Assembly: GCA_963787125.1 (NCBI GenBank)
Contig: CAWBBV010000007.1
Coordinates: 224,001 to 288,000, forward strand
Direction: 5' to 3'
Length of the DNA: 64,000 nucleotides
Origin: an uncultured delta proteobacterium
GTDB taxonomy: Bacteria > Desulfobacterota > Desulfuromonadia > Geobacterales > DSM-12255
A program made the position numbers and the translations under genes. Below, piece by piece: positions 2,752 through 48,149 of the stretch (positions are counted from its first letter, which is position 1; each line of letters begins with the position of its first letter). The notes under the pieces were generated by a model. The model made no database searches. It saw only the letters and a program-made list of their open reading frames with translations, and was not told where the DNA came from.

Positions 2752-4089
2752 TCAGGGAGTCAGATAGATATTCTTAACAGTGACCTTCGGCTCCAAGTTT
2801 ACAATCGAACGCTTTAAAGCATTACTTTCCCCAACGACAACAAAATGAATATGATCTGGCAGTTCGTCAAAATCCTCTTCTTTGTTGGCCGCCCTAAATG
2901 TTAGAAAATAGTCTCCAGGTGCAAGCCACATCCTCAAGTAAACTCTCCCCTCAACCACACTCCCTCTTTTTTGTGGATTTATAGCAACTTTTTGAATATC
3001 ACTATTAGTTGAAAATAGAAACAAACCCATTGCATTAGTTATTGGATATCCAACATGGAGTTTATCTATGTCGACATAAGTGAGTATTTTAGTGAAAAAG
3101 GTGTAATGTTTACCTGATTCTAGGATGGTAGTTCTGTTCCCGTCATTATCAGTTATCCCACAATCAATGATCTCTGCTTTTTTCTGACCATCCCAGGTTG
3201 TTAATTTAGCTTCAACCTGCTTTTTCAGCTTTTCATTGTTATGGATTACTCCAACTTGATTCTTGCTTGTTTCTGAAAGACATTCGGATGTGTCTGATAA
3301 TTCGTCGTCAAAAGAATTCATTGTTCTATCTTTTACCATCACATGATCTAGCATTAGTCTTTGATAAACTCTTGTGACGTTTTTAGGTATCCCATGTTCT
3401 ATAACTTTACCGCCACTCAATAGATAAGCATAATCGCACAGAATATTTACTGAATCCAACCCATGTGAAACAAACAGTATAGTTTTGTTGCTTTCATGAA
3501 ATGATTCAAGCTTTGCGTAACACTTTCGTTGGAATCTTATATCTCCAACAGCAAGAGCTTCGTCAACAATGAGAATATCCGCATCAACGTTTATTGCAAC
3601 GGCAAATGCAAGTCTTATGAACATGCCACTAGAATAAATCTTTACTGGTTGATAAATAAAGTCTCCGATATCAGCGAAAGAAAGTATATCGTCTAGTTTT
3701 TCGTCGATTTCTACTCTGGAATGCCCCATAAGTGTGCCATTAAAATAAACATTCTCAAGCCCGGTCAACTCGGGGTTAAACCCTGCACCAAGTTCTAATA
3801 GTGCCGAGACTTTACCGTTTACTATAACACTCCCGCTTGTAGGAGTCAGGATGCCGGTTATTGCTTTCAGTAGTGTAGATTTACCAGAACCGTTCATTCC
3901 AATGATACCAACGGTCTCTCCTCTCCTTATCTCAAAGCTAACATCATCAAGTGCATGGAAATCTCGATGATATTTTATCCCGAAAGGATTCAACGACTCC
4001 TTGAAACGGTCCAGAATTGAATCATAAAGTTTATAAGTTTTTGTGAGATTATTTATTTTAACTGCCACTTCCCCAGTCATTAACTGCAA
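2752..4089 (-). CDS. wzt: Polysaccharide ABC exporter ATP-binding subunit with Wzt C-terminal domain
   Basis: Walker A GMNGSGKST, YSSGMFIRLAF signature, ILIVDEAL Walker B, long C-terminal extension. Confidence 0.9.
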   Translation of the reverse strand: MQLMTGEVAVKINNLTKTYKLYDSILDRFKESLNPFGIKYHRDFHALDDVSFEIRRGETVGIIGMNGSGKSTLLKAITGILTPTSGSVIVNGKVSALLELGAGFNPELTGLENVYFNGTLMGHSRVEIDEKLDDILSFADIGDFIYQPVKIYSSGMFIRLAFAVAINVDADILIVDEALAVGDIRFQRKCYAKLESFHESNKTILFVSHGLDSVNILCDYAYLLSGGKVIEHGIPKNVTRVYQRLMLDHVMVKDRTMNSFDDELSDTSECLSETSKNQVGVIHNNEKLKKQVEAKLTTWDGQKKAEIIDCGITDNDGNRTTILESGKHYTFFTKILTYVDIDKLHVGYPITNAMGLFLFSTNSDIQKVAINPQKRGSVVEGRVYLRMWLAPGDYFLTFRAANKEEDFDELPDHIHFVVVGESNALKRSIVNLEPKVTVKNIYLTP

Positions 4090-4160
4090 CCCCCAGCATC
4101 AATTATATTGAAACTTACATTTCAAAGATGTTGACATCATAACGTTGTGAAAGCCTAAGT

Positions 4161-5204
4161 TCAACATTTTAACTTAATCAACCCGCCATATTCCTCTAAC
4201 TTCTTTGGTCTATTCATGTATCCTGCCCAGCCGTTGGCCAAACATGTTTTGCACATAGAAGAATTTAGTTGCTTGAATTTACTGATATCATCAGGGGTCA
4301 TAGATAGAAACTCAACGCTTTGTTTGTAAAAGTCGTAACAAGAACAGCAAAAAACAAGTGTAGCATCCGCATCAATAACAAGGAACTCAGACTGTTTGCA
4401 TGTTTGAGCATTTGCGTTCAGTTGGAGCGCTTGCAAAATAAATTCGGTAAAAACTGAATTATCTACAAAGCTTTTGATGGGCTCTTCTAAGCAGTTATTG
4501 CACCAATCGCGAATTGCTTCAATAGATCCAAGGTGCCCGTAATATGGTATTATCCCAATTCCGAGTTCATTGCAGAGGGTCTTAGCTGATTCGTATTGAA
4601 ACTCGTTGTGGCGATAACGGTGCCATCGAATCGCCACATTCAATGGCCTAATCTGGTTATGGGCTAACATTGCTAAACTCTTTAGATTTCTAATAACCAG
4701 GTTAAAATCACCTTTCCTATGGCTCAGGTTGTAAATGCCCTGCGTAATGCCGGAGATTGACACCTGAACGAAATCAAGACCCGATCTTGCAATTTCAGAC
4801 ATATCACAATCAACCGATAGTGAAGTAGAAATACCTATTTCCTCTAACCCAGACTCCCTTGCAATCTTCACAATCGCTGAAAACTGAGGATGCAATAAGG
4901 GTTCTCCCCAATTGCCCATTATCAGGGTTTTGATGTGAAATTCTTCGCGAATTTTTACAAAGCATTTACGCGCAGTTTCCAAATCTAATACAGTTGTTGG
5001 ATGCTGAGTAACTGTATTTCTTCCAACAGGACAAGGAATGCATTTTACCGGACATCCACTCACAGTTTCTAGGTAAGCAAACGTATATTGGTTAACTATT
5101 TCAATTGCATTATTATCGTTTTTTTCCCGTAAAGCACTCTTTGAAGATTTCCCGAATAATTTTTGCACTACATTAAATATTTTGCGAGTCTCATTTCGAA
5201 TCAT
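4161..5204 (-). CDS. Radical SAM protein with C-terminal twitch/SPASM-like cysteines
   Basis: CPVKCIPC (CxxxCxxC), NWGEPLLHP, C-terminal C...CCSC...CKTC. Confidence 0.8.
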   Translation of the reverse strand: MIRNETRKIFNVVQKLFGKSSKSALREKNDNNAIEIVNQYTFAYLETVSGCPVKCIPCPVGRNTVTQHPTTVLDLETARKCFVKIREEFHIKTLIMGNWGEPLLHPQFSAIVKIARESGLEEIGISTSLSVDCDMSEIARSGLDFVQVSISGITQGIYNLSHRKGDFNLVIRNLKSLAMLAHNQIRPLNVAIRWHRYRHNEFQYESAKTLCNELGIGIIPYYGHLGSIEAIRDWCNNCLEEPIKSFVDNSVFTEFILQALQLNANAQTCKQSEFLVIDADATLVFCCSCYDFYKQSVEFLSMTPDDISKFKQLNSSMCKTCLANGWAGYMNRPKKLEEYGGLIKLKC

Positions 5205-5321: not shown

Positions 5322-6062
5322 TTAGTAAGCTGTAAAGCTAGTCCTTTTCCATGAATTTGTTGCTGAACATACATACAAGAAGCCATTCGGAGCATCAAGA
5401 ATCAGGTCACCAACCGTACACGTTGCGTTATTTGCTGGGGCTGCAGGGTGATTTGAAAGACGTAGGCGACCATCACTCGCAATTCTCATGCGTTCAAGTT
5501 TTACATTCTGGTTAGCACCGGTCCAAAAATTGATATTCATTGGAGCATTACCTTGAGAATATGTTCCGGGATCAAGAGTAAAAATTAAGCTAGCACTAGC
5601 AGTATAACCGCCGCTATTTGCTATATCAATATTGCCGTCATATGCTAGTGCGTGGAATGCACCTATATTTGCGCCAGAGCCTGGAACGCCGGGAGCTGCT
5701 TCAGTTCCAGACGCTTTTTTAATATTAATAATTGCAGCAGCTCCACCAGCAGCATACTGACTGATTGTAAGACCACGGTCAAATGGTGCCGTTGGTTCTG
5801 AAATATGTAACGAAGTAAGTGGATTGGTGGTTCCAAATCCGAATTTTTTTGTTGCGGGCTTAAACATGAGGTTTGACGCAGACATTTGACCGTCCGCAGC
5901 AATTGTTAAACCTGGTGTCGTGACAACGCCTGTATCGCTGACCTTAAATACATCCGCTGTTCCACCTGCATTCTTCACAATCAACTTATCCGCACCCATC
6001 GCCGGAACCGCGAGAGCAACAACCGCTGCTGCTGCCAGCATTACTTTACAAATCTTCTTCAT
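5322..6062 (-). CDS. Secreted protein with tail-fibre/beta-rich-like motifs
   Basis: AGGAGG RBS, Sec signal peptide (MKKICKVMLAAAAVVALAVPAMG-A), FGFGTTNP..LHI, ERMRIASDG, C-terminal GDLILD..FLYVCSATNSWKR. Confidence 0.7.
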   Translation of the reverse strand: MKKICKVMLAAAAVVALAVPAMGADKLIVKNAGGTADVFKVSDTGVVTTPGLTIAADGQMSASNLMFKPATKKFGFGTTNPLTSLHISEPTAPFDRGLTISQYAAGGAAAIINIKKASGTEAAPGVPGSGANIGAFHALAYDGNIDIANSGGYTASASLIFTLDPGTYSQGNAPMNINFWTGANQNVKLERMRIASDGRLRLSNHPAAPANNATCTVGDLILDAPNGFLYVCSATNSWKRTSFTAY

Positions 6063-6159
6063 AACCATCCTCCTAGTTTTTGTTAAGAGTTATCGGGCTC
6101 TATTTAGTTTTAACGCCGTTATTTAACAACCATAGCCTTTATTTCACGTAATGCTTGAG

Positions 6160-6188
6160 ACTTTATCAGGAAATTATGCCCAATGCAA
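6160..6188 (-). promoter_or_regulatory. Sigma70-type promoter, copy 1 (upstream of the secreted protein gene)
   Basis: Minus strand TTGCAT-17 bp-TAAAGT with extended -10 TG; both boxes are conserved in the duplicate at 8867-8895. Confidence 0.6.
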
Positions 6189-6313
6189 ATAGCTATTTTT
6201 CAAAGGAAACGTTTAATAGGTCATGGGCTGACGAGAGTATCTTGCATTGTTAATGCCGAAGTGGAGGGGAGGGGGCAGAATCGTTTATGGATGAAACAAA
6301 GTCTTTCTCTTTA

Positions 6314-7063
6314 GCCACGGATGTCACGGATGTTCACGGATAAAACCTTTAGAATCTTCTTGGTTAAAACCTTATTGGTTAGCCTTACATCCGTGTTAAT
6401 CCGTGTAATCCGTGGCAAAGAATTTTTTCTGAAGACCTTTAGCCACGGATGTCACGGATGTTCACGGATAAAACCTTTAGAATCTTCTTGGTTAAAACCT
6501 TATTGGTTAGCCTTACATCCGTGTTAATCCGTGTAATCCGTGGCAAAGAATTTTTTCTGAAGACCTTTAGCCACGGATGTCACGGATGTTCACGGATAAA
6601 ACCTTTAGAATCTTCTTGGTTAAAACCTTATTGGTTGGCCTTACATCGGTGCTAATCCGTGTAATCCGTGGCAAATGCCTTTTTTCTGAAGACCTTTAGC
6701 CACGGATGTCACGGATGTTCACGGATAAAATCTTTAGAATCTTCTTGGTTAAAACCTTATTGGTTGGCCTTACATCGGTGCTAATCCGTGTAATCCGTGG
6801 CAAATGCCTTTTTTATCTGAAAACCTTTAGCCACGGATGTCACGGATGTTCACGGATAAAATCTTTAGAATCTTTTTGGTTAAAACCTTTATTGGTTAGC
6901 CTTACATCCGTGCTAATCCGTGTAATCCGTGGCAGAAAGCCTTAATTCTCTAAATCTTTAGCCACTGATGTCACGGATGTTCACGGATAAAGTCTTTAGA
7001 ATCTTCTTGGTTAAAACCTTCTGGGTTGGCCTTTCATCAGTGTAAATCCGTGTAATCCGTGGC
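6314..7063. repeat. Palindromic repeat array block 1 (6 units, about 128-131 bp period)
   Basis: Unit is GCCACGGATGTCACGGATGTTCACGGAT, an AT-rich loop, then ATCCGTGTTAATCCGTGTAATCCGTGGC. Left arms at about 6314, 6442, 6570, 6699, 6830, 6961. Confidence 0.95.
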
Positions 7064-7079
7064 AGAGAATTTTTTCTGC

Positions 7080-7457
7080 TTATAATACGAATCGTTTAAA
7101 TTCAGCACGTTCACTGCCGAAATTTACCAAGAGGCCAACCTGGATTCCAGTGGCTTTCAAGTAGTTTATCAACTGTGCCTGATGTACCGGCTTCAGGGAA
7201 TCCACTGCCTTCAACTCAACGATAACCTGATTCTCAACCAGAATATCTGGATAATAAAGCCCAACATCTTCACCCTTGTAGATGACATGCAGCTCCTTCT
7301 GCTCTTCCAACAGCGAGCCTCTCAGTTGAAGCTCCCTTACCAGTGCCTTCTGATAGACTGCTTCAAGAAAGCCCGGTCCGAGAATAGAATGAACCTCATA
7401 AATTGCTCCGATTATCCTGGAGGTAAGCTCTTCAGCGATCAAATTCGTGCAATTCAT
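7080..7457 (-). CDS. GxxExxY protein (PD-(D/E)XK nuclease-like)
   Basis: LGPGFLEAVY, PDILVENQVIVELKA, QLINYLKATG..GLLVNFG. Confidence 0.92.
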   Translation of the reverse strand: MNCTNLIAEELTSRIIGAIYEVHSILGPGFLEAVYQKALVRELQLRGSLLEEQKELHVIYKGEDVGLYYPDILVENQVIVELKAVDSLKPVHQAQLINYLKATGIQVGLLVNFGSERAEFKRFVL

Positions 7458-7484
7458 TGAATAAACCTCTTCTTAAAACCCTTA

Positions 7485-8037
7485 GCCACGGATGTCACGG
7501 ATTAACACGGATAAAGTCTTTAGAATCTTCTTGGTTAAAACCTTATTGGTTAGCCTTTCATCAGTGTAAATCCGTGTAATCCGTGGCAAAAAAGCCTTTG
7601 ACTAAAAATCCTTAGCCACGGATGTCACGGATTAACACGGATAAAACCTTTTGAAATCTTTTTTTGGTTAAACACTTTATATTCTGTTTTTCATCGGTGT
7701 AAATCCGTGTAATCCGTGGATAAAGGCCTTTGACTTAAAACCCTTGGCCACGGATGTCACGGATGAACACGGAAAGAACCTTTTGACATCTTTTTTTGGT
7801 TAAACACTTTAGATTCTGTTTTTCATCGGTGTAAATCCGTGTAATCCGTGGATAAAGGCCTTTGACTTAAAACCCTTGGCCACGGATGTCACGGATGAAC
7901 ACGGAAAGAACCTTTTGACATCTTTTTTTGGTTAAACACTTTAGATTCTGTTTTTCATCGGTGTAAATCCGTGTAATCCGTGGTTAAAAGCATTTGACTT
8001 AAAACACTTATCCACGTATGTCACGGATGCCCACGGT
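7485..8037. repeat. Palindromic repeat array block 2 (4 units plus a lone left arm abutting the HEPN stop)
   Basis: Left arms at about 7485, 7615, 7747, 7879; half unit TCCACGTATGTCACGGATGCCCACGG at about 8011. Confidence 0.93.
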
Positions 8038-8039
8038 GA

Positions 8040-8510
8040 TCACAAGATTGTTTCATCAGTTGTGAACTTTCCGGCATAAGTGTTGATTCGCTTCACACTA
8101 TCGAAAAGAAGTGGCGTCGTCCGCAGACTCTCGATATAAATGTTCGTGATATCTTCCTCTGACTCGGCGTATTCATGGGCAATTCTGTTTCGAAGCATGC
8201 GAATCTGAGCAAACTGTTGTGCTGATGAGATGAGCCCTTTTTTCTCGGCACGATTTATGGCATCACGGATGGTTTCAGGAGCTTCATCAAGATCCAGAAT
8301 ATCAATCAGCTTGATAGCCTGTTTAATAATAAGGTCGGACAACCTGGCATACTTGGAGGTCAATGATTCGAAGCGGTCTTGCTCCTCCCGATCATATTCA
8401 CCTTTGATTCCGATCGAGAGGCACTTTTCATATGAGTATTCCAGCGTTTCATCTGCTTTACGCAATCGGTCCAGCAGCTCTTTTAAATATGCGCTCTCTT
8501 CTTTTCCCAT
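8040..8510 (-). CDS. HEPN-domain RNase toxin (HepT-like)
   Basis: RNRIAHEY matches the RX4HXY motif; overlaps the upstream MNT gene. Confidence 0.82.
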   Translation of the reverse strand: MGKEESAYLKELLDRLRKADETLEYSYEKCLSIGIKGEYDREEQDRFESLTSKYARLSDLIIKQAIKLIDILDLDEAPETIRDAINRAEKKGLISSAQQFAQIRMLRNRIAHEYAESEEDITNIYIESLRTTPLLFDSVKRINTYAGKFTTDETIL

Positions 8511-8794
8511 AATTTAACCGTCCCCTTTGCCAGCACCATCCGGACAAAAGTATTTTTAAGTTCACTTCCGGTCAGAACAAAGTCAAGCTTCTGCTCGTCA
8601 ATATGTTGAAACAACTCCTCCTCTATAAGGAAAAGCATGTTTTTATCCACGACATCCGATTTAATAAGGATATCGATATCGCCCCCCCTTTTGGAGTCAT
8701 CGAGCCTTGATCCGAACAGGTGAATTTCGGCGTTTTCATCGAACATGAGGATTGCGTTTATTATAGCATGCCGCTCTTCTTCAGAAATCCTCAT
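8483..8794 (-). CDS. Minimal nucleotidyltransferase antitoxin (MntA-like)
   Basis: LFGSRLDDSKRGGDIDILI (GSx10DxD), 103 aa. Confidence 0.85.
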   Translation of the reverse strand: MRISEEERHAIINAILMFDENAEIHLFGSRLDDSKRGGDIDILIKSDVVDKNMLFLIEEELFQHIDEQKLDFVLTGSELKNTFVRMVLAKGTVKLWEKKRAHI

Positions 8795-8848
8795 TTAATT
8801 GCCCCTTGCTGTAAATACTTTTTGGGTTTAAAACCTTCTCGCATTGCC

Positions 8849-9010
8849 TTTCACGTAATGCTTAAAACTTTATCAGGAAAATTCACCCGATGCAAATAGC
8901 GATTTTATCAAAGGAAACGTTTAATAGGTCATGGGCTGACGAGAGTATCTGGCATTGTTAATGCCGAAGTGTGGGGGGATCGTTTATGGAAAAACAAGTC
9001 TTTCTTTTTA
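8849..9010 (-). repeat. Direct duplicate of 6142-6313, including sigma70 promoter copy 2 (8867-8895)
   Basis: Shared TTCACGTAATGCTT...CAAAGGAAACGTTTAATAGGTCATGGGCTGACGAGAGTATCT...TTGTTAATGCCGAAGTG. Confidence 0.9.
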
Positions 9011-9770
9011 GCCACGGATGTCACGGATGAACACGGATAAAACCTTTTGAAATCTTTTTTTGGTTAAACACTTTAGATTTTGTTTTTCATCGGTGTAAAT
9101 CCGTGTAATCCGTGGCTAAAGGCCTTTGCCTTAAAACCCTTGGCCACGGATGTCACGGATGTTCACGGATAAAATCCCTATAATCTTCTTGGGGTAAACC
9201 TTCTTTGGTTAGCCTTTCATCAGTGTTAATCCGTGTAATCCGTGGCAAAGGCTTTTTTTCTGAAAACTCTTGGCCACGGATGTCACGGATGAACACGGAT
9301 AGAACCTTTTGAAATCTTTTTTTGGTTAAACACTTTAGATTTTGTTTTTCATCGGTGTAAATCCGTGTAATCCGTGGCTAAAGGCCTTTGACTTAAAACC
9401 CTTGGCCACGGATGTCACGGATGTTCACGGATAAAATCCCTATAATCTTCTTGGGGTAAACCTTCTTTGGTTAGCCTTTCATCAGTGTAAATCCGTGTAA
9501 TCCGTGGCAAATGCTTTTTTTCTGAAAACTCTTGGCCACGGATGTCACGGATGAACACGGATAGAACCTTTTGACATCTTTTTTTGGTTAAACACTTTAG
9601 ATTTTGTTTTTCATCGGTGTAAATCCGTGTAATCCGTGGCTAAAGGCCTTTGACTTAAAACCCTTGGCCACGGATGTCACGGATGTTCACGGATAAAATC
9701 TTTACAATCTTCTTGGGGTAAACCTTTTTCGTTTAGCCTTTCATCCGTGTTAATCCGTGTAATCCGTGGC
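9011..9770. repeat. Palindromic repeat array block 3 (6 units, alternating A/B loops, 262 bp dimer period)
   Basis: Left arms at about 9011, 9143, 9273, 9405, 9535, 9667. Confidence 0.95.
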
Positions 9771-9795
9771 AGAAAGCTTTTCACGTTGCTGTTCC

Positions 9796-11100
9796 TCAAT
9801 CCTTCTTCTGCTTCTCCATTGCATCATCCATAACCTTATAGGCACAGAACTCGCCACACATGGTGCAGGCGCCATGGTCGGCAACCCCAGATTCTGCACG
9901 GAGCTGACGGGCTTTATCCGGGTCGAGCGCCAGGGCGAACTGCCCCTCCCAGTCCAGTTTTTTGCGGCATTTGGCCATGGCGATGTCCTTGTCGATGGCG
10001 CCTTTCACCCCTTTGACGATATCGCCGGCGTGGGCGGCAATGCGGGTGGCGATGACGCCGTCGCGGACATCCTGGACTGACGGGAGTTTCAGGTGTTCGG
10101 CCGGAGTGACATAACAGAGGAAGTCAGCGCCTTCTGCGGCGGCGACTGTGCCGCCGATGGCGCAGGTGATATGGTCGTAGCCGGGGGCAATATCGGTTAC
10201 CAGCGGCCCGAGAACATAAAATGGTGCACCGTGGCAGAGGCGTTTCTGAAGGAGAATGTTGGCTTTTATCTGGTTGAGCGGCATATGACCCGGCCCTTCG
10301 ATCATGACCTGGACACCGGCATCCCAGGCCCGTTGGGTGAGTTCTCCCAGAAGGATAAGCTCCTGGATCTGGGCCCGGTCGGTAGCGTCGGCAAGGCAGC
10401 CGGGACGGAAACCGTCGCCGAGGGAGAGGGTCAGGTCGTACTCCCTGGATATCTGCAGCAGTTTGTCGAAATGCTCGAAGAGCGGGTTTTCAGCGTTATT
10501 GTAGGCCATCCATTCGATGGTGAAGGCGCCGCCACGGGAGACAACATCCATGATCCGCCCTTCGTTCTTCATCCGCTCGACGGTGCTTCTGGTAACTCCG
10601 CAATGCACGGTGATGAAGTCGACACCGTCTTCGGCGTGTTTGATGATGCCGGCGAACATCTCTTCAACCGTCATATCTACAATCGCTTTCTTGCGCACTC
10701 TTACCGCATCGAGGGCCGCCTGGTACAGTGGTACCGAGCCGATGCAGGCGCTTGTTTCGGCAATGATGGCACGGCGGATTTCGTCGACAGGGCCGCCGGT
10801 AGAAAGATCCATGATGGCGTCAGCGCCGTATTTAACAGCAGTCCGCGCTTTTTCAAGCTCTTTGGAGATGTCGAGATCGTCCGAAGATGAGCCGATGTTG
10901 GCATTCACCTTGGTGCGCAGCCCCTTGCCGACCGGGAGCGGCATGCCGTTCAGATGTTTGATGTTGTGGCAGATAATGATATTGCCGGCGGCAATTCCGT
11001 CACGGATAAATTCAGGTGACACCCCTTCAGAGGCGGCGGCAGCGGTCATTTTCTCGGTTATTATTCCTTTGCGGGCGTAGTCAAGCTGGGTTGTTGCCAT
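9796..11100 (-). CDS. thiC: Phosphomethylpyrimidine synthase
   Basis: [32 protein letters not shown] motifs. Confidence 0.97.
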
Positions 11101-12592: not shown

Positions 12593-12621
12593 CCAGAGAG
12601 ATGAGTATCAATAGGTCATTT

Positions 12622-12846
12622 CTGGCCGCTTCCCTACGCCGGCGTTACCCGGATCAGGTGATAGGGGTTCAAGGGGTTAGTTCCAATTCCAAATCAAAGC
12701 GGCATCTTCGTTGGCTCGTCTTCGGCTCCTCAACGTACGATTAGTACGCCTCGTCGCCTCAATCCTCGCCGCCTTGATGTCATCTTTGATTTACAACCGG
12801 AATAAGACATCCCTCATCTCAGCCCTGACAGGCTCCCCCAGCTGGC
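12622..12846 (-). ncRNA. TPP riboswitch with a large internal hairpin insertion
   Basis: Minus strand GGGGGAGCC..GGCTGAGA ... ACCCCTATCACCTGATCCGGGTAACGCCGGCGTAGGGAAG, upstream of thiDE-thiC. Confidence 0.88.
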
Positions 12847-13007
12847 ATATTGTGCGACAAAGTAGAGTAAAACGGCCAGAAAGTCAATTGCTTTGAGATT
12901 TAAGGGCGATATTGATTCATGCTTTACAGGCTCAGTTGTGAATGGTAAAAACTTGAGCGTATTTAACTCCATAGCTGTTGAACGTATTTAAGACTAAAGG
13001 GACTTCA

Positions 13008-29330: not shown

Positions 29331-30143
29331 ATGAACTACCTCCGGATATTTGTACTTTTCTTAAAAGACCTCTTCCTGCGTCGCAACATGATTATCGAAC
29401 TGGCGAAGCAGGACTTCCGCAGTAAGTACCTCGGCTCTTATCTTGGCATTCTTTGGGCGTTCATTCATCCGACAATCTATGTGTCAATTCTGTGGGTAGT
29501 GTTTCAGGTCGGTTTCAAGTCTCAACCGGCCGGAGATGTGCCATTTGTGCTCTGGATGCTTTGCGGCATAATTCCCTGGTTTTTCTTCAGTGAATCTCTC
29601 AACAGTGCCACAAGCTCAATTCTCGACAACTCATTTTTGTTAAAGAAAGTCAATTTTAGCGTTGGGATGCTGCCGATCGTCAAGATACTTTCTGCGCTTG
29701 TCCTGCATGCCTTTTTCATTCTGGTTATTTTTAGCATGTTTCTTATCTACCGAACTCCGGTTACGCTGCACTGTCTCCAGGTTTTCTATTATCTTTTCTG
29801 CACCATAATCCTTTTGTTAGGTCTTTCCTGGTTGACATCGTCAGTTATAATATTCTTTCGTGACATGGGCCAGATAGTCAATATGGTTCTCCAATTCCTC
29901 TTCTGGATGACCCCCATCTTCTGGTCTGCCAAGATACTCCCCCCTAAATATCTCAACATGGTCAAGCTTAATCCCGTCTATTATATCGTTGAAGGTTATC
30001 GGGAAAGCTTTATCTATCATGTCTGGTTCTGGAACGGTCATTATGAGCTTACTGCTTACTTCTGGCTGGTGACCGGAGCCATATTCGTCAGTGGTGCAGT
30101 TGTTTTCAGAAGGCTCAGACCACACTTCGCAGATGTGCTCTAG
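29331..30143 (+). CDS. wzm: Polysaccharide ABC exporter permease
   Basis: FRSKYLGSYLGILW, PWFFF, FRD..Q, TPIFW, LNP..YIVEGYR, HFADVL. Confidence 0.9.
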   Translation: MNYLRIFVLFLKDLFLRRNMIIELAKQDFRSKYLGSYLGILWAFIHPTIYVSILWVVFQVGFKSQPAGDVPFVLWMLCGIIPWFFFSESLNSATSSILDNSFLLKKVNFSVGMLPIVKILSALVLHAFFILVIFSMFLIYRTPVTLHCLQVFYYLFCTIILLLGLSWLTSSVIIFFRDMGQIVNMVLQFLFWMTPIFWSAKILPPKYLNMVKLNPVYYIVEGYRESFIYHVWFWNGHYELTAYFWLVTGAIFVSGAVVFRRLRPHFADVL

Positions 30144-30287: not shown

Positions 30288-30363
30288 GCCATCTTAGCTC
30301 AGTTGGTAGAGCAATTGATTCGTAATCAATAGGTCGACGGTTCGACTCCGTTAGATGGCTCCA
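30288..30363 (+). tRNA. tRNA-Thr(CGT)
   Basis: GCCATCT/AGATGGC acceptor stem, anticodon loop TT-CGT-AA, GGTTCGACTCC T arm, encoded CCA. Confidence 0.95.
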
Positions 30364-40473: not shown

Positions 40474-40614
40474 ATGACTACCCTCCCCAAAATATCCATA
40501 GTTACCCCCTCCTTCAACCAGGGGAAGTTTCTCGAAAAGACCATTCTCTCCGTGCTTGAGCAGGGATACCCCAATCTTGAGTACATCGTCATCGACGGCG
40601 GCAGTAATGTCTAA
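40474..40614 (+). pseudogene. 5' fragment copy 2 (46 codons) of the GT2 gene at 41429
   Basis: [46 protein letters not shown], nearly identical to the N-terminus of 41429-42391. Confidence 0.85.
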
Positions 40615-40650: not shown

Positions 40651-41049
40651 GTGAGGCGTATGCATTTGAATGAAATTTCCAAATGTATTGTGGATGCAGC
40701 AATTGAAGTTCATAGGAATCTTGGTGGGCCAGGTCTTCTTGAAAATGTTTATGAAGAGGCATTGGCTTGGGAGTTGCTTCAGCGCGGTTTTATAGTTGAA
40801 AGGCAGCTTCTTGTGCCGATATTTTACAAAGGCAATGAACTGGGATCGCCACTTAAGCTTGATTTGTTGATTGAAAAACGCATTATCGTCGAAGTGAAAG
40901 CAACCTCGAATTATAACCCGATATTTGAAGCTCAGATTCTTACCTACCTCCGCATGATGGATCTCAAGGTTGGATTAGTCATCAATTTTGGTGAGAAATA
41001 TGTTAAAGATGGCATCCGGCGGGTGGTAAGCGGACTTATTGAACCGTAA
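40651..41049 (+). CDS. GxxExxY protein (PD-(D/E)XK nuclease-like)
   Basis: GPGLLENVY, LDLLIE..IIVEVKA, QILTYL, GLVINFG; likely start is ATG 40660. Confidence 0.92.
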   Translation: MRRMHLNEISKCIVDAAIEVHRNLGGPGLLENVYEEALAWELLQRGFIVERQLLVPIFYKGNELGSPLKLDLLIEKRIIVEVKATSNYNPIFEAQILTYLRMMDLKVGLVINFGEKYVKDGIRRVVSGLIEP

Positions 41050-41063
41050 ATTCAAAAACAATT

Positions 41064-41446
41064 TTTAACGCAGAGCCGCAGAGGCACAGAGGAAAACAAA
41101 AATCCCAACAATGGGTTTCTATTTACTATGATTATTTGTTTATATAGTGGTTTTCACCGCGTCTCTGCGTCTTGTGTTAAATACAGGTTTTAAAAAGGTG
41201 TCAAGATGGGCGTAGAAGCTATCTGCCAAAAATTTTTATCGTTACGCCGTCCTACGAAATGGTGGCAGTAATGTCTAAAGTCATTTTAAACGCAGAGCCG
41301 CAGAGGCACAGAGGAAAACAAAAATCCCAACAATGGGTTTCTATTTACTATGATTATTTGTTTATTTAGTGGTTTTCTCCGCGTCTCTGCGTCTCTGTGT
41401 TAAATACAGGTTTTAAAAAGGTGTCAAGATGGGCGTAGAAGCTATC
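41064..41446. repeat. Two palindromic units (CGCAGAG family) within an ~160 bp direct duplication, separated by degenerate GT2 5' fragment copy 3 (from 41206)
   Basis: AACGCAGAGCCGCAGAGGCACAGAGG ... CTCCGCGTCTCTGCGTCTCTGTGTT; 41064-41224 matches 41286-41446; lone left arm at 40624-40650. Confidence 0.88.
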
Positions 41447-42447: not shown

Positions 42448-45400
42448 GTGCGAATGAAAACTATATCGATAGCTGACAATATCAACAACAAAATTAAAGT
42501 TCTTTATCTGTCCCACTCTGCTGAACTATCTGGTGGCGGAGAAATATGTCTTTTAACCCTGTTGCGGCATCTGGATAGGGAGAGCATTGAACCGATCGTG
42601 TTATTCCCGACCGATGGGCCGTTCAAGGACGCTGTCGAGCGACTGTTAATCAAAACCTATATCGTGCCGATGGAATGGTGGGTGGAGACAGAATATGGCA
42701 TCCCTTTTCAGGATGAGAGTTTTGCTGAACGTGTCGGACTCATTGGCGAGATAATTGCGCAAGAGCAACCTGACATAATTCACACAAATACATCGGTGCT
42801 CTGGGAAGGGGCTGTTGCGGCAAGAATTCATAATGTCCGTCATGTCTGGCACATCCATGAAGTCTTGGCAGGGCACCCGAGTCTTACTCCAGTATTGCCA
42901 CTTTCACTGCTATACTTTGTTATTGAGACATTTACAGACAGAGTTGTTGCTGTGTCTGATACGGAAAAACGTGAGCTGACCAGATATATTTCCCCGGACA
43001 AAATTACTACAATTCATAACGGGGTTGAAGCGCGGCAATTTTCTCCGGAAACTGGAATTTCTCTCAGGGAAGAGTTGGGTATAGCTGCTGGAGATGCAAT
43101 CGCTCTGACTTTAGCTTCACTTGCCAGGTTCAAAGGGATTGACACACTGCTCGATGCGGCACTGCTTGTAAAAGAGAATAACGATAAGATCAGATTTGTT
43201 CTTGCCGGCAGCGGGACAGATGATGCTATTGAAGCACTGAACAAAAAGATTGCCCGGCTTGGTTTGGTGGATGTTATCCACTACCTCGGTTTTCGCAGTG
43301 ATGTCGAACATCTCCTGGCGGCAGCAAATTTTCTGGTGGTTTCCTCCATTAACGAATCCTTTTCACTGGTAACAGCAGAGGCGATGGCCGCTGGTAAGAC
43401 GGTCATAACAACGGATTGCGGTGGCCCTGCTGAACTGGTTATTGATGGTGAAACCGGATTTATTGTGCCTGTAGGTGATGCTTCGTTATTGCGAGAGAAA
43501 ATGCTTCAACTGACAGCAGATGAGCAGATGATGAAGACTATGGGCAATAACGGGCGTAAGCGGTTTATGGAATGTTTTACGGCTGACATTTATGCAGAGA
43601 AGTTCCTGCTTTTATATAAAGAAATTAGTCGTTTTCCTGGGCTGCCTACGCTAACTGGTAGCGAAAGCAGGTTGATTCAGGACGCGGCTTCTTTTTACCA
43701 GAACCATCTGGAAAAGATGAAGAAACTTCTTGCCCAAGAGAGGATAATCGCAGAAAAAAATTATCAGATCGCAGAGCGAAACCAACAGATCGAACTAAGA
43801 GATAATGAAATAAAATATCAAATAGAAGTCGGAAAGCAGAATGTTGCAGGGCTTGAGTATCGTCTGAATCAGCAGCTTGCCGAGCTGGAGTATCGTCTGA
43901 AACAGCAGCTTGTAGAGTTGGAACATCAACTGGCTTCGCGTGATTTAGAGATTCAAAATCTTGACGCACAACTCCAGCAGCGGGAGGAGCTGTTAGGGCA
44001 CAAAACACAGCAGTTGCGGCATAAGGATGAACTGCTGAACGCCACCTATGATTCCCTTTCCTGGCGGGTTACCAAGCCGCTCCGCAAGTCGCATGCCTTT
44101 ATTATGAGGTCGCTGATCTCTCTTGAAGGAGGAAAGCGCCAAGCTCCTTCAGTACAGATGCTGCCAGAGAAAGAACTGCTTATCCATGAACAGTTGCTCG
44201 GTGAACTGCGGACCGGTAAAGGCTCGACATTTGATGTCATCGTCTTTCCGGTTATCGACTGGCATTTTCGTATCCAGCGTCCCCAGCATCTAGCCATGAG
44301 TCTGGCGCGGGAGGGTCACCGCACTTTCTATCTGACAATAGATTTTATTGTGAGCGGTGAGCCGGGGTTTCAGCTTGTCGAGAACCCGGCTGAAAATGTG
44401 TTTATAGTGAGACTCGTCTGTTCGGCTCATCGCTCGCTCAATGTCTATCAGGACGTTATCGGCAAGGAGCAGCGCCAGTCGCTCGTGGCCTCGCTTCTGT
44501 CGTTATTCGATAGTTGTGGAGTGACAGATCTGGTTTCGATTATAGATTTACCTTTCTGGCAATCGGTGGCGACAGCACTTCCCGGCAATCTGGTAGTCTA
44601 TGACTGTATGGATCATCATGCCGGTTTTGCCACCAACTCCAATCGCATGCTCCGGGAGGAGCAGCAGCTTCTGGCCGGTGCCGATCTGGTTATTACAACA
44701 TCAGAGCGGTTGTCTCAGATTGTCGCCAAGAAGGCGGCGAATATTATCATCCGCAACGGCGCCGAGGTTGACTTTTTCTCCAAACGACCGCAAGAGCTGC
44801 AAATTTCGCAGGGGAAGCCGGTAGTCGGCTATTACGGAGCAATTGCAGAATGGTTCGATATTGATTTGGTCATCGCAGCTGCCAGGGCCTGTCCGGACTG
44901 GGAGTTCGTTCTGATTGGCTCCACTGCCGGTTGTGAAACCCGCGAAGCTCGTAACCTTGCCAATATCACCTTTATCGGTGAAGTTCCCTATGGAAGTCTG
45001 CCGGGCTACCTGTACGCCTTCGATGTCTGCATGATTCCTTTCAAGGTTATCGAGCTGACACTCTGTACCAATCCGGTGAAGGTGTACGAGTACCTGAGTG
45101 CCGGCAAGCCGGTGGTATCGACTGCACTGCCGGAAGTTCAACTCATGGGCGATGTGGTTCACTGTGCTTCATCCACGCCCCAGTTTATCACTGCGCTGCA
45201 GGTTGCCATGCTGGAGAGCAGCGACACAGAGCTTGCCCGTCGCCGGGCAACCTGGGCTCAGCAGCATGATTGGCGTGAGCGGGCGCGGCAGTTGACCCAG
45301 ACGCTGCATGGGCTTTTTCCGAAAGTGAGTGTGGTGGTTCTTACCTACAATAACCTGGACCTGACCAAAGAGTGTCTCGCCAGCCTGCTGACAGAATCCG

Positions 45401-46944: not shown

Positions 46945-48149
46945 GGAATGTTGATTGGAGTTTGCTCGGGGTTAAACTGCCCTACTGTCTGGCTCCCTGG
47001 ATGGTTGCCTACATCCAGTCTGACGGTCTGGTTCGGCCCTGTTGCATCCATCCTCCAACACTGGGCAATACGAATGTCAATACTATGGAGGAGATCTGGA
47101 ACGCACCCTCTTTTGCCGGATTGCGACAGTCTATGCTTGGTCGGGCACCTCTACCAGAAATATGTACAACATGCAATGATGGCTTGCGCTATGTAAATGT
47201 GGATGAATATGTATTATTCCAGATGGAGGAGATGTGTGCACGAAATGAATCCGATAAGGTTCTGCGGCTATTTGAAACTCTGGCACAGCAAAATGTTCTC
47301 ATAGAAGGTGCTATTCCGATTATTGCCCTGCTGTTGGAGGACATGAGATCTAACGGCGAACTCTTAGAGGCTTTGAGATTCTTTGAATCTCTGGTGAAGC
47401 ATAAAGTGCTGCTTATCGAAGCCATGCCTATAATTGCTCTTCTCTTGGAAGATTTGAGCGCAACCGGTGAAATTCATAAGGTTTTGCGATTGTTTGAATC
47501 TCTGGTGCAGCATAATGTTGTAATTGTAGAAGCTTTTCCGCTTATAAGTAAGTTGCTGGAACAGATGTATGCTCAAGGTGAAGCAGAAGAGGCCAGGCGG
47601 CTGTTCACTAATCTGGTGCAGCATAATGTAGTGATCGTTGAAGCTTTTCCTCTTATCAGCAGGTTGTTAAAGAAGATGTGTGCTGAGGGTGAAATCGAAG
47701 AGGCCAAACGCCTGTTCACTGATCTGGTGCTGAATAAAGTGATCATCTTTAAAGCGGTACGGTTTATGGCGCCACTTTTTGGCACCCATTATTTTTATTG
47801 GTGCTCGTTTATTCCTCCTCAAAGAGCTTTACTCTGGAAGGTTTGGTATGTTGGCTATCTTGTCCAACTATTTTTTGCCGGGGAAAGGTTGCAGGGGGCG
47901 CCGTTCAGCTTCGATCCCATGTTTTGGTGGCATGTTTCCGGAAAGTTTCCCGAAGTCGCTGATAGACTTAAAAAACTGGTCGGGATCTGTTACTCTTCTG
48001 AAGAAGAATTGTTTCAAGCAGTTGGGCATTGCATTGGTGCTGAACTAACGGAAGAGTGCCGACCGTTGCTCGAAGCCGAGCTGGTAATGATTCGTGACCC
48101 GCGAAGACTGGGGAGAGAGTTGTTGCGGCGTCTGGTGACGCGGCAATAA
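46935..48149 (+). CDS. SPASM/twitch domain followed by five 37-aa helical repeats
   Basis: CLAPW..DGLVRPCC..LGN..EEIWN..CTTC, then repeats such as LLEQMYAQGEAEEARRLFTNLVQHNVVIVEAFPLISR. Confidence 0.75.
   Translation: MPMRNVDWSLLGVKLPYCLAPWMVAYIQSDGLVRPCCIHPPTLGNTNVNTMEEIWNAPSFAGLRQSMLGRAPLPEICTTCNDGLRYVNVDEYVLFQMEEMCARNESDKVLRLFETLAQQNVLIEGAIPIIALLLEDMRSNGELLEALRFFESLVKHKVLLIEAMPIIALLLEDLSATGEIHKVLRLFESLVQHNVVIVEAFPLISKLLEQMYAQGEAEEARRLFTNLVQHNVVIVEAFPLISRLLKKMCAEGEIEEAKRLFTDLVLNKVIIFKAVRFMAPLFGTHYFYWCSFIPPQRALLWKVWYVGYLVQLFFAGERLQGAPFSFDPMFWWHVSGKFPEVADRLKKLVGICYSSEEELFQAVGHCIGAELTEECRPLLEAELVMIRDPRRLGRELLRRLVTRQ

Follow-up and report, generated by a model that had tools for sequence, protein, structure and literature searches.

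A tandem array of word-built hairpins beside thiC as a probable pile-up of a foldback element linked to GxxExxY nucleases

Repetitive extragenic palindromes (REPs), the bacterial interspersed mosaic elements (BIMEs) that they build and the REPIN-RAYT systems of E. coli and Pseudomonas are intergenic palindromes found at the 3' ends of genes and in operons, with few in promoter regions. They sometimes occur as tandem clusters of alternating unit types, and a single-copy gene is thought to drive them. The REP unit itself is an imperfect palindrome of 20-40 nt with a conserved GTAG-type tetranucleotide. The foldback (FB) transposons of Drosophila and the eukaryotic satellites derived from miniature inverted-repeat transposable elements (MITEs) have terminal inverted repeats built of short tandem repeats; some FB copies have a coding loop and most do not, and they tend to form arrays and cause inversions. 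Genes for Ssn nucleases of the GIY-YIG type are flanked by their own dispersed hairpin repeat, which is cut in single-stranded DNA (Chenal et al. 2025, PMC11893778). The intervening sequence (IVS) of 23S rRNA in Coxiella and Leptospira is a selfish insert with a short open reading frame (ORF) and inverted ends, excised by RNase III (PMC4990558). Here we describe a ~3.5-kb array of hairpins next to thiC in a 64,000-nucleotide stretch (the window; contig CAWBBV010000007.1, positions 224,001 to 288,000, assembly GCA_963787125.1) of an uncultured member of the Geobacterales. The array is probably a local pile-up of gene-less copies of a palindromic, foldback-type selfish element that carries a GxxExxY nuclease gene in its full form. 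The full element would consist of two inverted arms, each with three CACGGAT words one helical turn apart and a short flank of the TTAGC/GCTAA type, with a gene for a ~125-aa GxxExxY PD-(D/E)XK nuclease between the arms. Gene-less copies would persist between genes as hairpins of ~100-130 bp.

Layout of the hairpin array

Tandem Repeats Finder (TRF) resolved the region 6309-9781 into three tandem blocks of ~130-base palindromic hairpin units arranged head-to-tail. The first (6309-7078) has a period of 128 and 6.0 copies with 93% matches, the second (7472-8036) a period of 132 and 4.3 copies with 90% matches, and the third (9011-9781) a period of 130 and 5.8 copies or, alternatively, a period of 262 and 2.9 copies at 97%. 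Scanning the array for arms revealed 17 left arms (CACGGAT-N2-CACGGAT-N3-CACGGAT) and 16 right arms with the mirrored pattern (ATCCGTG-N3-ATCCGTG-N2-ATCCGTG), with a word spacing of 9-10 nt within each arm. These amount to 16 full units and one half unit at 8013-8038, truncated by a HEPN gene, which agrees with the 16.5 units with triple-word arms given in a preliminary description of this DNA. The loops are 47-50 nt and the linkers 29-32 nt long. With at most one mismatch allowed, the triple-word pattern was found 32 times in the window and never in 100 dinucleotide shuffles, and 83 of the 478 exact CACGGAT words in the genome fall in 6309-9781. The genes between the blocks are all on the minus strand, and the array and its immediate flank are laid out as follows:

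6140..6312, no strand: leader copy 1, ~170 bp, abutting the first left arm of block 1; its minus-strand side faces the gene at 5322-6068
6309..7078, no strand: block 1, six units (u1-u6) with loop type A
7080..7457, minus strand: GxxExxY / PDDEXK_3 nuclease gene, 125 aa, at a linker position between two complete hairpins
7472..8038, no strand: block 2, units u7-u10 and the half unit, whose left arm (8013-8038) enters the HEPN stop codon
8040..8510, minus strand: HepT/HEPN-like toxin gene, 156 aa, a marginal match to PF01934 (23.8 bits against a cut-off of 23.5)
8483..8794, minus strand: nucleotidyltransferase gene of the MNT type, 103 aa, encoding the partner antitoxin (PF01909 at 24.1 bits, cut-off 21)
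8849..9009, no strand: leader copy 2, lying upstream of the MNT-HEPN pair and abutting the first left arm of block 3
9006..9781, no strand: block 3, six units (u11-u16) with B and A' loops in alternation, a 262-bp higher-order repeat

Loop type A is found in u1-u7, type B in u8-u11, u13 and u15, and type A' in u12, u14 and u16, so that the A/B alternation reported earlier for block 3 is reproduced both by the loop types and by the 262-bp TRF period. Together with its following linker, u1 is an exact 128-bp duplicate of u2; u3 and u4 are 99% identical, u9 and u10 98%, and same-phase units of block 3 98-99%. Because of the exact u1/u2 duplicates, the copy number could be miscounted by short-read assembly. 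No sequencing run contained more than 0.12 of the sampled words, and four runs gave short metagenome contigs, none of them spanning the array. When the units were aligned, the mean pairwise identity was 94% in the arms, 74% in the loop and 67-80% in the outer flanks, bearing out the earlier statement that arms are better conserved than loops. The extended palindromic ends measure ~31-38 bp and the units 100-130 bp. Units adjoin almost exactly where their extended palindromes end, and each linker is made of two outer flanks of the TTAGC/GCTAA type. The array coincides with a GC border, with a low-GC segment (36-44%) on one side and core DNA (53-60%) on the other.

The preliminary description had also proposed BIME-like amplification with selection on the arms. 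The tandem palindromic unit, the conserved arms and the drifting loops support this, and the arms alternate left and right as in BIMEs, with two loop and linker types alternating at a 262-bp period in block 3. The likeness is nevertheless one of layout only. The arms are built of direct CACGGAT repeats with a TTAGC flank, carry no GTAG and are not palindromic by themselves, and the linked gene encodes a PD-(D/E)XK nuclease rather than a Y1 transposase. A REP/BIME system driven by a RAYT was rejected, none of the seven Y1_Tnp (PF01797) genes of the genome being within 1.5 kb of a CACGGAT word. The small, non-coding units with terminal inverted repeats also resemble MITEs, and their parent element carries a nuclease of putative role and not a known transposase. 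A CRISPR array was discarded as well: there are no unique spacers, the loops are of three types, the linkers are homogeneous, and the best CRISPR-DR match scored 17.4 bits against a threshold of 39.

Repeated open frames of 68-79 aa read through the units (window 6321-6945; for example 6321-6527 and 6449-6655) and are taken as repeat artefacts. Two more TRF tandem repeats, at 43844-43922 (33 bp x 2.4) and 47501-47737 (111 bp x 2.1), are probably within coding sequence. A promoter and terminator scan gave counts not above those in shuffles, and the TTTACA-N18-TAAAGT sites in the B loops are candidates.

The GxxExxY family and its dispersed hairpins

The earlier account of the array stood as far as it went, but it was silent on the GxxExxY gene within the array, on the dispersed solo copies and on the occurrence of the family across phyla. 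The product of the gene at 7080-7457 matches PF13366 (E 1.1e-43, 148.7 bits against a cut-off of 22) and TIGR04256 (150.7 bits against 35). Across 39 aligned homologues, G29, E32, Y35, D71 and K83 are invariant and E81 is at least 90% conserved, and the array nuclease has both the G-x-x-E-x-x-Y motif and the D...E-x-K catalytic core. Its AlphaFold2 model (pLDDT, the predicted local distance difference test, 94.5) has the restriction-endonuclease-like PD-(D/E)XK fold. Foldseek matched this model to lambda exonuclease, Cas4 SSO0001 and Hjc (TM 0.45-0.55), and a sequence search of the PDB gave no match and hence no solved relative.

PF13366 is a family very common in bacteria; within the order it was found in 98 of 121 genomes searched, at up to 10 copies in one genome. 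This genome has six PF13366 genes, every one of them bordered by short-repeat arms or hairpins with a word of its own (GAGCAAC, CACGGAT, ACACGAA, CGCGGAT, AATCTGA-type and CGCAGAG); the inverted-repeat script overlooked the arms of two of the six. For GAGCAAC, CACGGAT and CGCGGAT the arms upstream and downstream form clear inverted pairs, and for ACACGAA, AATCTGA and CGCAGAG a repeat array precedes the gene and a hairpin follows it. Counted by eye, ~30 of 41 sampled PF13366 genes of the order have word-built inverted arms around the ORF, beginning within a few bases of the start codon and finishing within ~20 nt of the stop codon. Word type follows protein clade: a clade of 18 rows (support 96/96) uses words in ...AG, and words in ...AT lie outside it. 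There are two exceptions in the ...AG clade, one a mislabel by the inverted-repeat script and the other an inverted outlier (L194). The words stay constant at ~40% protein identity, at which spacers and loops are unrelated.

The window holds a second GxxExxY gene at ~40660-41050 (PF13366 match 40672-41025), with weak word-like repeats upstream and CGCAGAG-word hairpins downstream at 41069-41169 and 41291-41399. A 26-nt junction motif occurs at 40600 and again at 41264, and both sides carry a copy of the 5' part of a glycosyltransferase gene, which places this second cassette inside a tandemly duplicated target gene.

No word in the genome but CACGGAT has many gene-less copies: it has 28 exact triple arms, compared to at most two for each other word. 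A genome-wide count, as the preliminary description had suggested, found besides the array ~nine solo hairpins, which share its arms and outer flanks, whereas their loops, 20-120 nt long, are unrelated. Every solo copy is intergenic, and three of them occupy consecutive junctions of the trp operon. At the trpG-trpD junction the two genes overlap (ATGA) in the relatives G001, G003, G005 and G010, whereas this genome (G000) has ~150 extra bases containing the hairpin. The same junction has a hairpin of GTGAAAG words in G006 and GTAG REP-like elements in G007, G013, G016 and G020. The next two trp junctions show the same pattern with other words (GTTGAGT, CGCAAAG, GTCAG-type and GGGGGAT). As relatives either have no insert or have other palindromes at these places, the hairpins are insertions at permissive gene junctions.

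Across the three junctions (loci L180-L192 and L228-L246) there are same-design hairpins of varying word, GTAG REP-like elements or nothing, and the hairpin words of relatives also include GGTTAAG. The trp junctions are insertion hot spots common to several palindrome families. Such shared hot spots are a likeness to REPs, GTAG-type REP-like elements being present at the trpG-trpD junction of genus g7. An unrelated dispersed repeat of ~82 bp lies beside the second trp-junction hairpin (L174 3074-3156; G000 C11:69873-69955); it has at least 13 more copies in this genome at 88-95% identity, and matches in relatives. Among 63 classifiable copies of the CACGGAT element, 56 are between tandem or convergent genes and 7 between divergent genes. 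This avoidance of divergent promoters, as in REPs, fits either insertion tolerance in transcribed spacers or a role as RNA.

To place the element beyond the order, exact triple CACGGAT arms were scanned for across phyla in one genome per species. At least 121 stretches were found, in Verrucomicrobiota, Acidobacteriota, Planctomycetota, Bacteroidota, Leptospirales, Pseudomonadota, Omnitrophota and others, and among the matches listed the arms were often inverted pairs 40-150 nt apart. We took 80 of these stretches with their flanks and checked 48 small ORFs near the arms against Pfam. A PF13366 gene lies between or against the arms in four of the 80 loci (L037, L064, L089 and L112), and two loci carry PIN or VapB-PIN modules, the VapB-PIN module being in L096. 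Tandem hairpins recur in Verrucomicrobiota and Leptospirales loci (L098 and L099), and some other-phylum copies end in AAC/GTT. Hairpin matches were found in 4/4 genomes with an orthologue of at least 80% identity versus 9/36 genomes without one, a weak contrast because all four are from one genus.

The Ssn/NTS system offers the closest parallel: in the accessible part of its description (PMC11893778), a small nuclease gene is likewise flanked on both sides by its own hairpin-forming repeat, many gene-less copies are spread over the genome, and the association crosses phyla, with variant motifs accompanying variant proteins. The differences are that the nuclease is of the PD-(D/E)XK class (PF13366) here and GIY-YIG in Ssn, that the arms here comprise three phased 7-nt words where the Ssn repeat is a single hairpin motif, that binding or cleavage of the words is putative here, and that a long tandem array is not mentioned for Ssn in that part of the source (PMC11893778).

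Orthologous loci, growth of the array and an inversion

The array nuclease is 82-83% identical to the products of genes in G009, G017 and G021, which belong to another genus of the same family and have only 2-3 tandem CACGGAT hairpins after the gene. In all three the left arm overlaps the start codon, so that ...ACGGAT encodes the T-D of a conserved M-x-T-D. The cassette starts 3 nt past the stop codon of the ABC-2 (wzm) gene in G009 and G021. In G017, wzm is followed on the same strand by an antitoxin-PIN pair bracketed by CACGGAT arms, then by GxxExxY, the hairpins, a 40%-identical homologue of the gene at 5322-6068 (lying between the GxxExxY cassette and Wzt) and finally wzt. The window retains the neighbours of G017 (5322-6068 and wzt) on one side of the array, the features around which are:

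2752-4089, strand not given: wzt, the neighbour beyond 5322-6068
5322..6068, minus strand: gene for a signal-peptide protein, a conserved cassette neighbour with no Pfam or NCBIfam match
9796..11100, minus strand: thiC, its stop codon ~15 nt from the outer flank of u16; one end of the proposed inversion
12614-12849, strand not given: thiamine pyrophosphate (TPP) riboswitch (Rfam)
29331-30143, plus strand: Wzm (ABC-2) gene; the other end of the proposed inversion
30288-30363, plus strand: tRNA-Thr(CGU), after the Wzm gene; the only tRNA-Thr(CGU) of the genome

The antitoxin-PIN pair of G017 (L274, G017:C10, ~3900-4700, reversed) has a left arm of degenerate CACGGAT words on one side and what is left of a right arm on the other; it lies immediately upstream of the GxxExxY cassette and is thus other cargo in the same kind of arm.

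Neighbouring units that are near-identical even in loops and linkers are the signature of recent local duplication, and comparison with the orthologous loci suggests that the array locus is old and its expansion recent. An old cassette between wzm and wzt of a polysaccharide cluster would have grown from 2-3 hairpins, as in the relatives, to 16.5 units, likely by unequal recombination between the 26-bp arms, which are identical, or by slippage of replication there, since each arm can pair with either neighbour. During this expansion the array would have taken in the HEPN/MNT toxin-antitoxin pair with its upstream region, and one array edge would have become the breakpoint of a ~20-kb inversion.

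The toxin-antitoxin pair consists of overlapping genes, and the HEPN gene scored 24.1 bits against NF047751, under the cut-off of 60. The two leader copies (6140-6312 and 8849-9009) share 84% identity, and the genome has no third copy. On a metagenome contig from a different sample (X3, record 14), a hairpin unit comes first, HEPN/MNT follows with 34 differences in 775 nt, and the leader core comes last, an order which indicates that the leader belongs to the toxin-antitoxin module. Among 22 family genomes, one has a 43-nt match to the leader. Leader copy 1 contains the palindrome GCATTGTTAATGC at 6244-6256 and a candidate minus-strand promoter, TTGCAT-N17-TAAAGT, at 6160-6188. This conserved sequence would be a promoter for the gene strand, and leader copy 1 may drive the gene at 5322-6068 and those behind it. 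A sigma-54-like TGGCAT-N5-ATGC in leader copy 2 (8950-8964) was rejected because leader copy 1 reads TTGCAT and the relative G012 lacks the GG, and a hammerhead-like CTGACGAG in the leader found no support in Rfam. In G012 itself (L173, G012:C225, 1300-2300), two leader-like cores (TGCATTGATAATGCCGAAG) each lie 25-60 nt upstream of arms with other words, GTGAAAA and CGGATAA-type, nested with a partial CACGGAT hairpin.

The preliminary description had placed the array immediately downstream of thiC. This holds for the present arrangement, as thiC is on the minus strand and the u16 flank begins ~15 nt past its stop codon, yet the adjacency appears to be derived: in 11 of 21 relatives, read by eye, a tRNA gene follows within ~50-170 nt of thiC. 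Inverting the ~20.4-kb segment from thiC to wzm (9796-30363) restores both the thiC-tRNA and the wzm-cassette-wzt orders. The Wzm protein of the window is 63% identical to the ABC-2 protein of G009. After the wzm stop codon the window has N6-TTAGC followed by unrelated sequence and no arm, where G009 has N3-TTAGC-CACGGAT. TTAGC without an arm puts one breakpoint at the boundary of the outer flank and the first word, a suggestive position, although it is a single event. We infer that the array came to lie beside thiC secondarily, through a ~20-kb inversion that ended at its edge and would have split wzm from wzt and thiC from tRNA-Thr(CGU). FB transposons offer a parallel in layout and in such inversions; they are eukaryotic, much longer and linked to a transposase, and no homology is implied. 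In genus g3 (L267 of G021 and L263 of G009), a hairpin of CGCAGAT/CTACGGAT words takes the place of the tRNA downstream of thiC, and in G021 a long CACCT microsatellite lies downstream of thiC, followed by masked bases.

Competing accounts and significance

The anatomy of the array, the family membership of its gene, the orthologous loci, the insertion status of the solo copies and the duplication pattern are matters of observation. On the foldback-element reading, which we favour as the probable one, the words would in addition be binding or cleavage sites of the resident nuclease, and the array would have no host function beyond side effects such as a block to transcription or rearrangement. 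Several points weigh against it. Unequal crossing-over alone does not predict that units abut at their palindrome ends, and this abutment could mean end-targeted insertion. At the three trp junctions no target-site duplication was definable. The array gene does not have the arm-encoded M-x-T-D start of its orthologues and sits between two complete hairpins instead of within one, and so may be a rearranged passenger. With four genes in 80 loci, most cross-phylum copies have no nuclease gene near them. The matches given by Foldseek are generic to the modelled fold and uninformative on the substrate. As gene and arms are linked, the agreement of words with the protein tree is expected from co-inheritance alone and does not prove recognition; comparing word type with protein identity does not separate the two either. 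Proteins with CACGGAT arms in other phyla, at 38-49% identity to the array protein, are no nearer to it than is the CGCAGAG-arm GxxExxY protein of the window, at 40%.

A more far-reaching version, which we put forward tentatively, takes the words as cognate recognition and cut sites. Nuclease-driven foldback cassettes would then copy into gene junctions across phyla, shed gene-less hairpins and stack end to end, giving arrays that capture toxin-antitoxin modules and promoters without an integrase and break chromosomes exactly at the TTAGC-CACGGAT boundary, of which the inversion at this locus would be an example.

The arms could instead act at the level of RNA, as a long transcript stem comparable to the 23S rRNA IVS stems cut by RNase III, an account that we consider unlikely but the strongest of the rivals. 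Such a stem would permit insertion within operons, hide the ribosome-binding site of the gene, or stabilise or terminate flanking mRNAs, and the array would be a row of stems downstream of thiC. Folding of the units, as proposed in the preliminary description, gave a long hairpin for each (-49.6 kcal/mol, z -8.9, with RNA parameters), and the shifted register of right arm, linker and next left arm was nearly as stable (-44.1, z -8.4). On both strands, all units fold far better than shuffles, with z-scores of about -7 to -10 (-6.9 to -9.9). The solo copies within operons, such as those at three consecutive trp junctions, the preponderance of tandem or convergent gene neighbours, the left arm over the start codon in full cassettes, and T-runs after the right arm on the plus strand all suit a transcribed stem. 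So does the complementarity of the spacers, which in 18 independent hairpins is 57.5% compared to 40 +/- 7% with shuffled partners.

Against this, a stem by itself gives no reason for one 7-nt word to be kept across phyla. Compensatory changes, which the preliminary description had named as evidence for an RNA or cruciform stem, were weak: every one of the 16 array units has mismatched spacers between its words, in 12 of 16 the innermost right word has changed without compensation, and flank mispairs comprise 36 G:T and 52 A:C, with no G:T excess on either strand. At Rfam gathering thresholds only one tRNA and the TPP riboswitch were found in the window and the array matched no family; relaxing the cut-off to E<=10 added nothing but microRNA-like hairpins and sub-threshold matches to CRISPR-DR and TwoAYGGAY (RF01731), the latter, with the best bacterial match, at 23.4 and 21.1 bits against a threshold of 43. 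Fixed words with mismatched spacers favour word recognition over a continuous stem, with some pairing still kept. The conservation of the words across phyla points to recognition of the words themselves, and the 9-10-bp phasing would suit several protomers on one face of duplex DNA. The likeness to the 23S IVS is that of a small selfish insert, acquired horizontally into a transcribed essential unit, with a short ORF between stem-forming inverted ends (PMC4990558). Copies here lie between or beside protein-coding genes and not in rRNA, and the ORF encodes GxxExxY where the IVS protein is the four-helix bundle S23p (PMC4990558). PF05635, the IVS protein family, had no match over its cut-off in this genome.

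It is less probable still that the array is a cassette platform, to which units and cargo were added singly by site-specific cutting and joining at the outer hairpin edge, in the manner of an integron without an integrase, and which would record serial insertions instead of duplication. The abutment of units at their palindrome limits, with linkers made of two outer flanks, would be explained, as would the tandem hairpins in L098 and L099, an inversion breakpoint that, behind wzm, falls precisely where TTAGC meets the first word, and cargo that differs between genomes (HEPN/MNT here, antitoxin-PIN in G017, VapB-PIN in L096). Duplication is nonetheless the simplest account of neighbouring units that are near-identical in loop and linker and of a 262-bp dimer at 97-99%. 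None of the eight tyrosine-recombinase (PF00589) matches in the genome is on the 605-kb contig of the array (C7), and no circular or excised forms are known. Integron attC arrays are comparable as rows of imperfect palindromes of ~60-140 bp between small promoterless or toxin-antitoxin genes, the latter a typical cargo; here many consecutive units have no gene between them, and solo copies lie within housekeeping operons. An integron cassette array was rejected on the recombinase matches, and attC sites on the flanks, which are TTAGC/GCTAA with no R''/R' GTTRRRY core in the copies of this genome, and on the ratio of 16.5 hairpins to three genes.

Recruitment by the host as a protein-binding array is very improbable. 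The words would be operators for a regulator or nucleoid protein (phased direct repeats like those read by OmpR/PhoB-type or iteron binders) or, once transcribed, ACGGAU motifs that titrate an RNA-binding protein such as CsrA. In its favour, the phasing aligns the words along one face of B-DNA, 83 of them within 3.5 kb would make a strong sink, and ACGGAU fits the A-N-GGA core of CsrA sites. Against it, the copies of many phyla have unrelated housekeeping genes as neighbours and no common regulon, are rare in divergent promoter regions (7/63) and would have their GGA motifs base-paired in the hairpin, and Bacteroidota, which are not known to have CsrA, carry the element too.

Literature searches with the family names, the word, and the IVS and foldback concepts found no description of a GxxExxY-hairpin element. 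The function of PF13366 is given as 'Unknown' in a 2012 survey of PD-(D/E)XK proteins (PMC3424549). The available portion of a Geobacter genome paper lists 'multicopy nucleotide sequences', with palindromic and direct-repeat families, and makes no link to a nuclease (PMC2996986); the word CACGGAT is absent from 12 of the 15 supplement files of that paper. The element family is widespread and apparently undescribed, and a long tandem array of it is new.

Linking PF13366 to a DNA structure that can be recognised, namely inverted arms of phased 7-nt words that occur in many phyla, leave gene-less hairpins in operons and can grow into kilobase arrays, would give the family a testable role, and the nuclease link would also account for a large class of intergenic palindromes that genome papers have merely catalogued. 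If these nucleases do recognise their own words, the family would amount to a natural collection of small nucleases that are sequence-specific and differ in specificity, as Ssn proved to be. The array shows such elements reshaping a chromosome by copy-number expansion, cargo capture and what appears to be an inversion that separated wzm from wzt, and it provides a natural substrate for tests of the nuclease.

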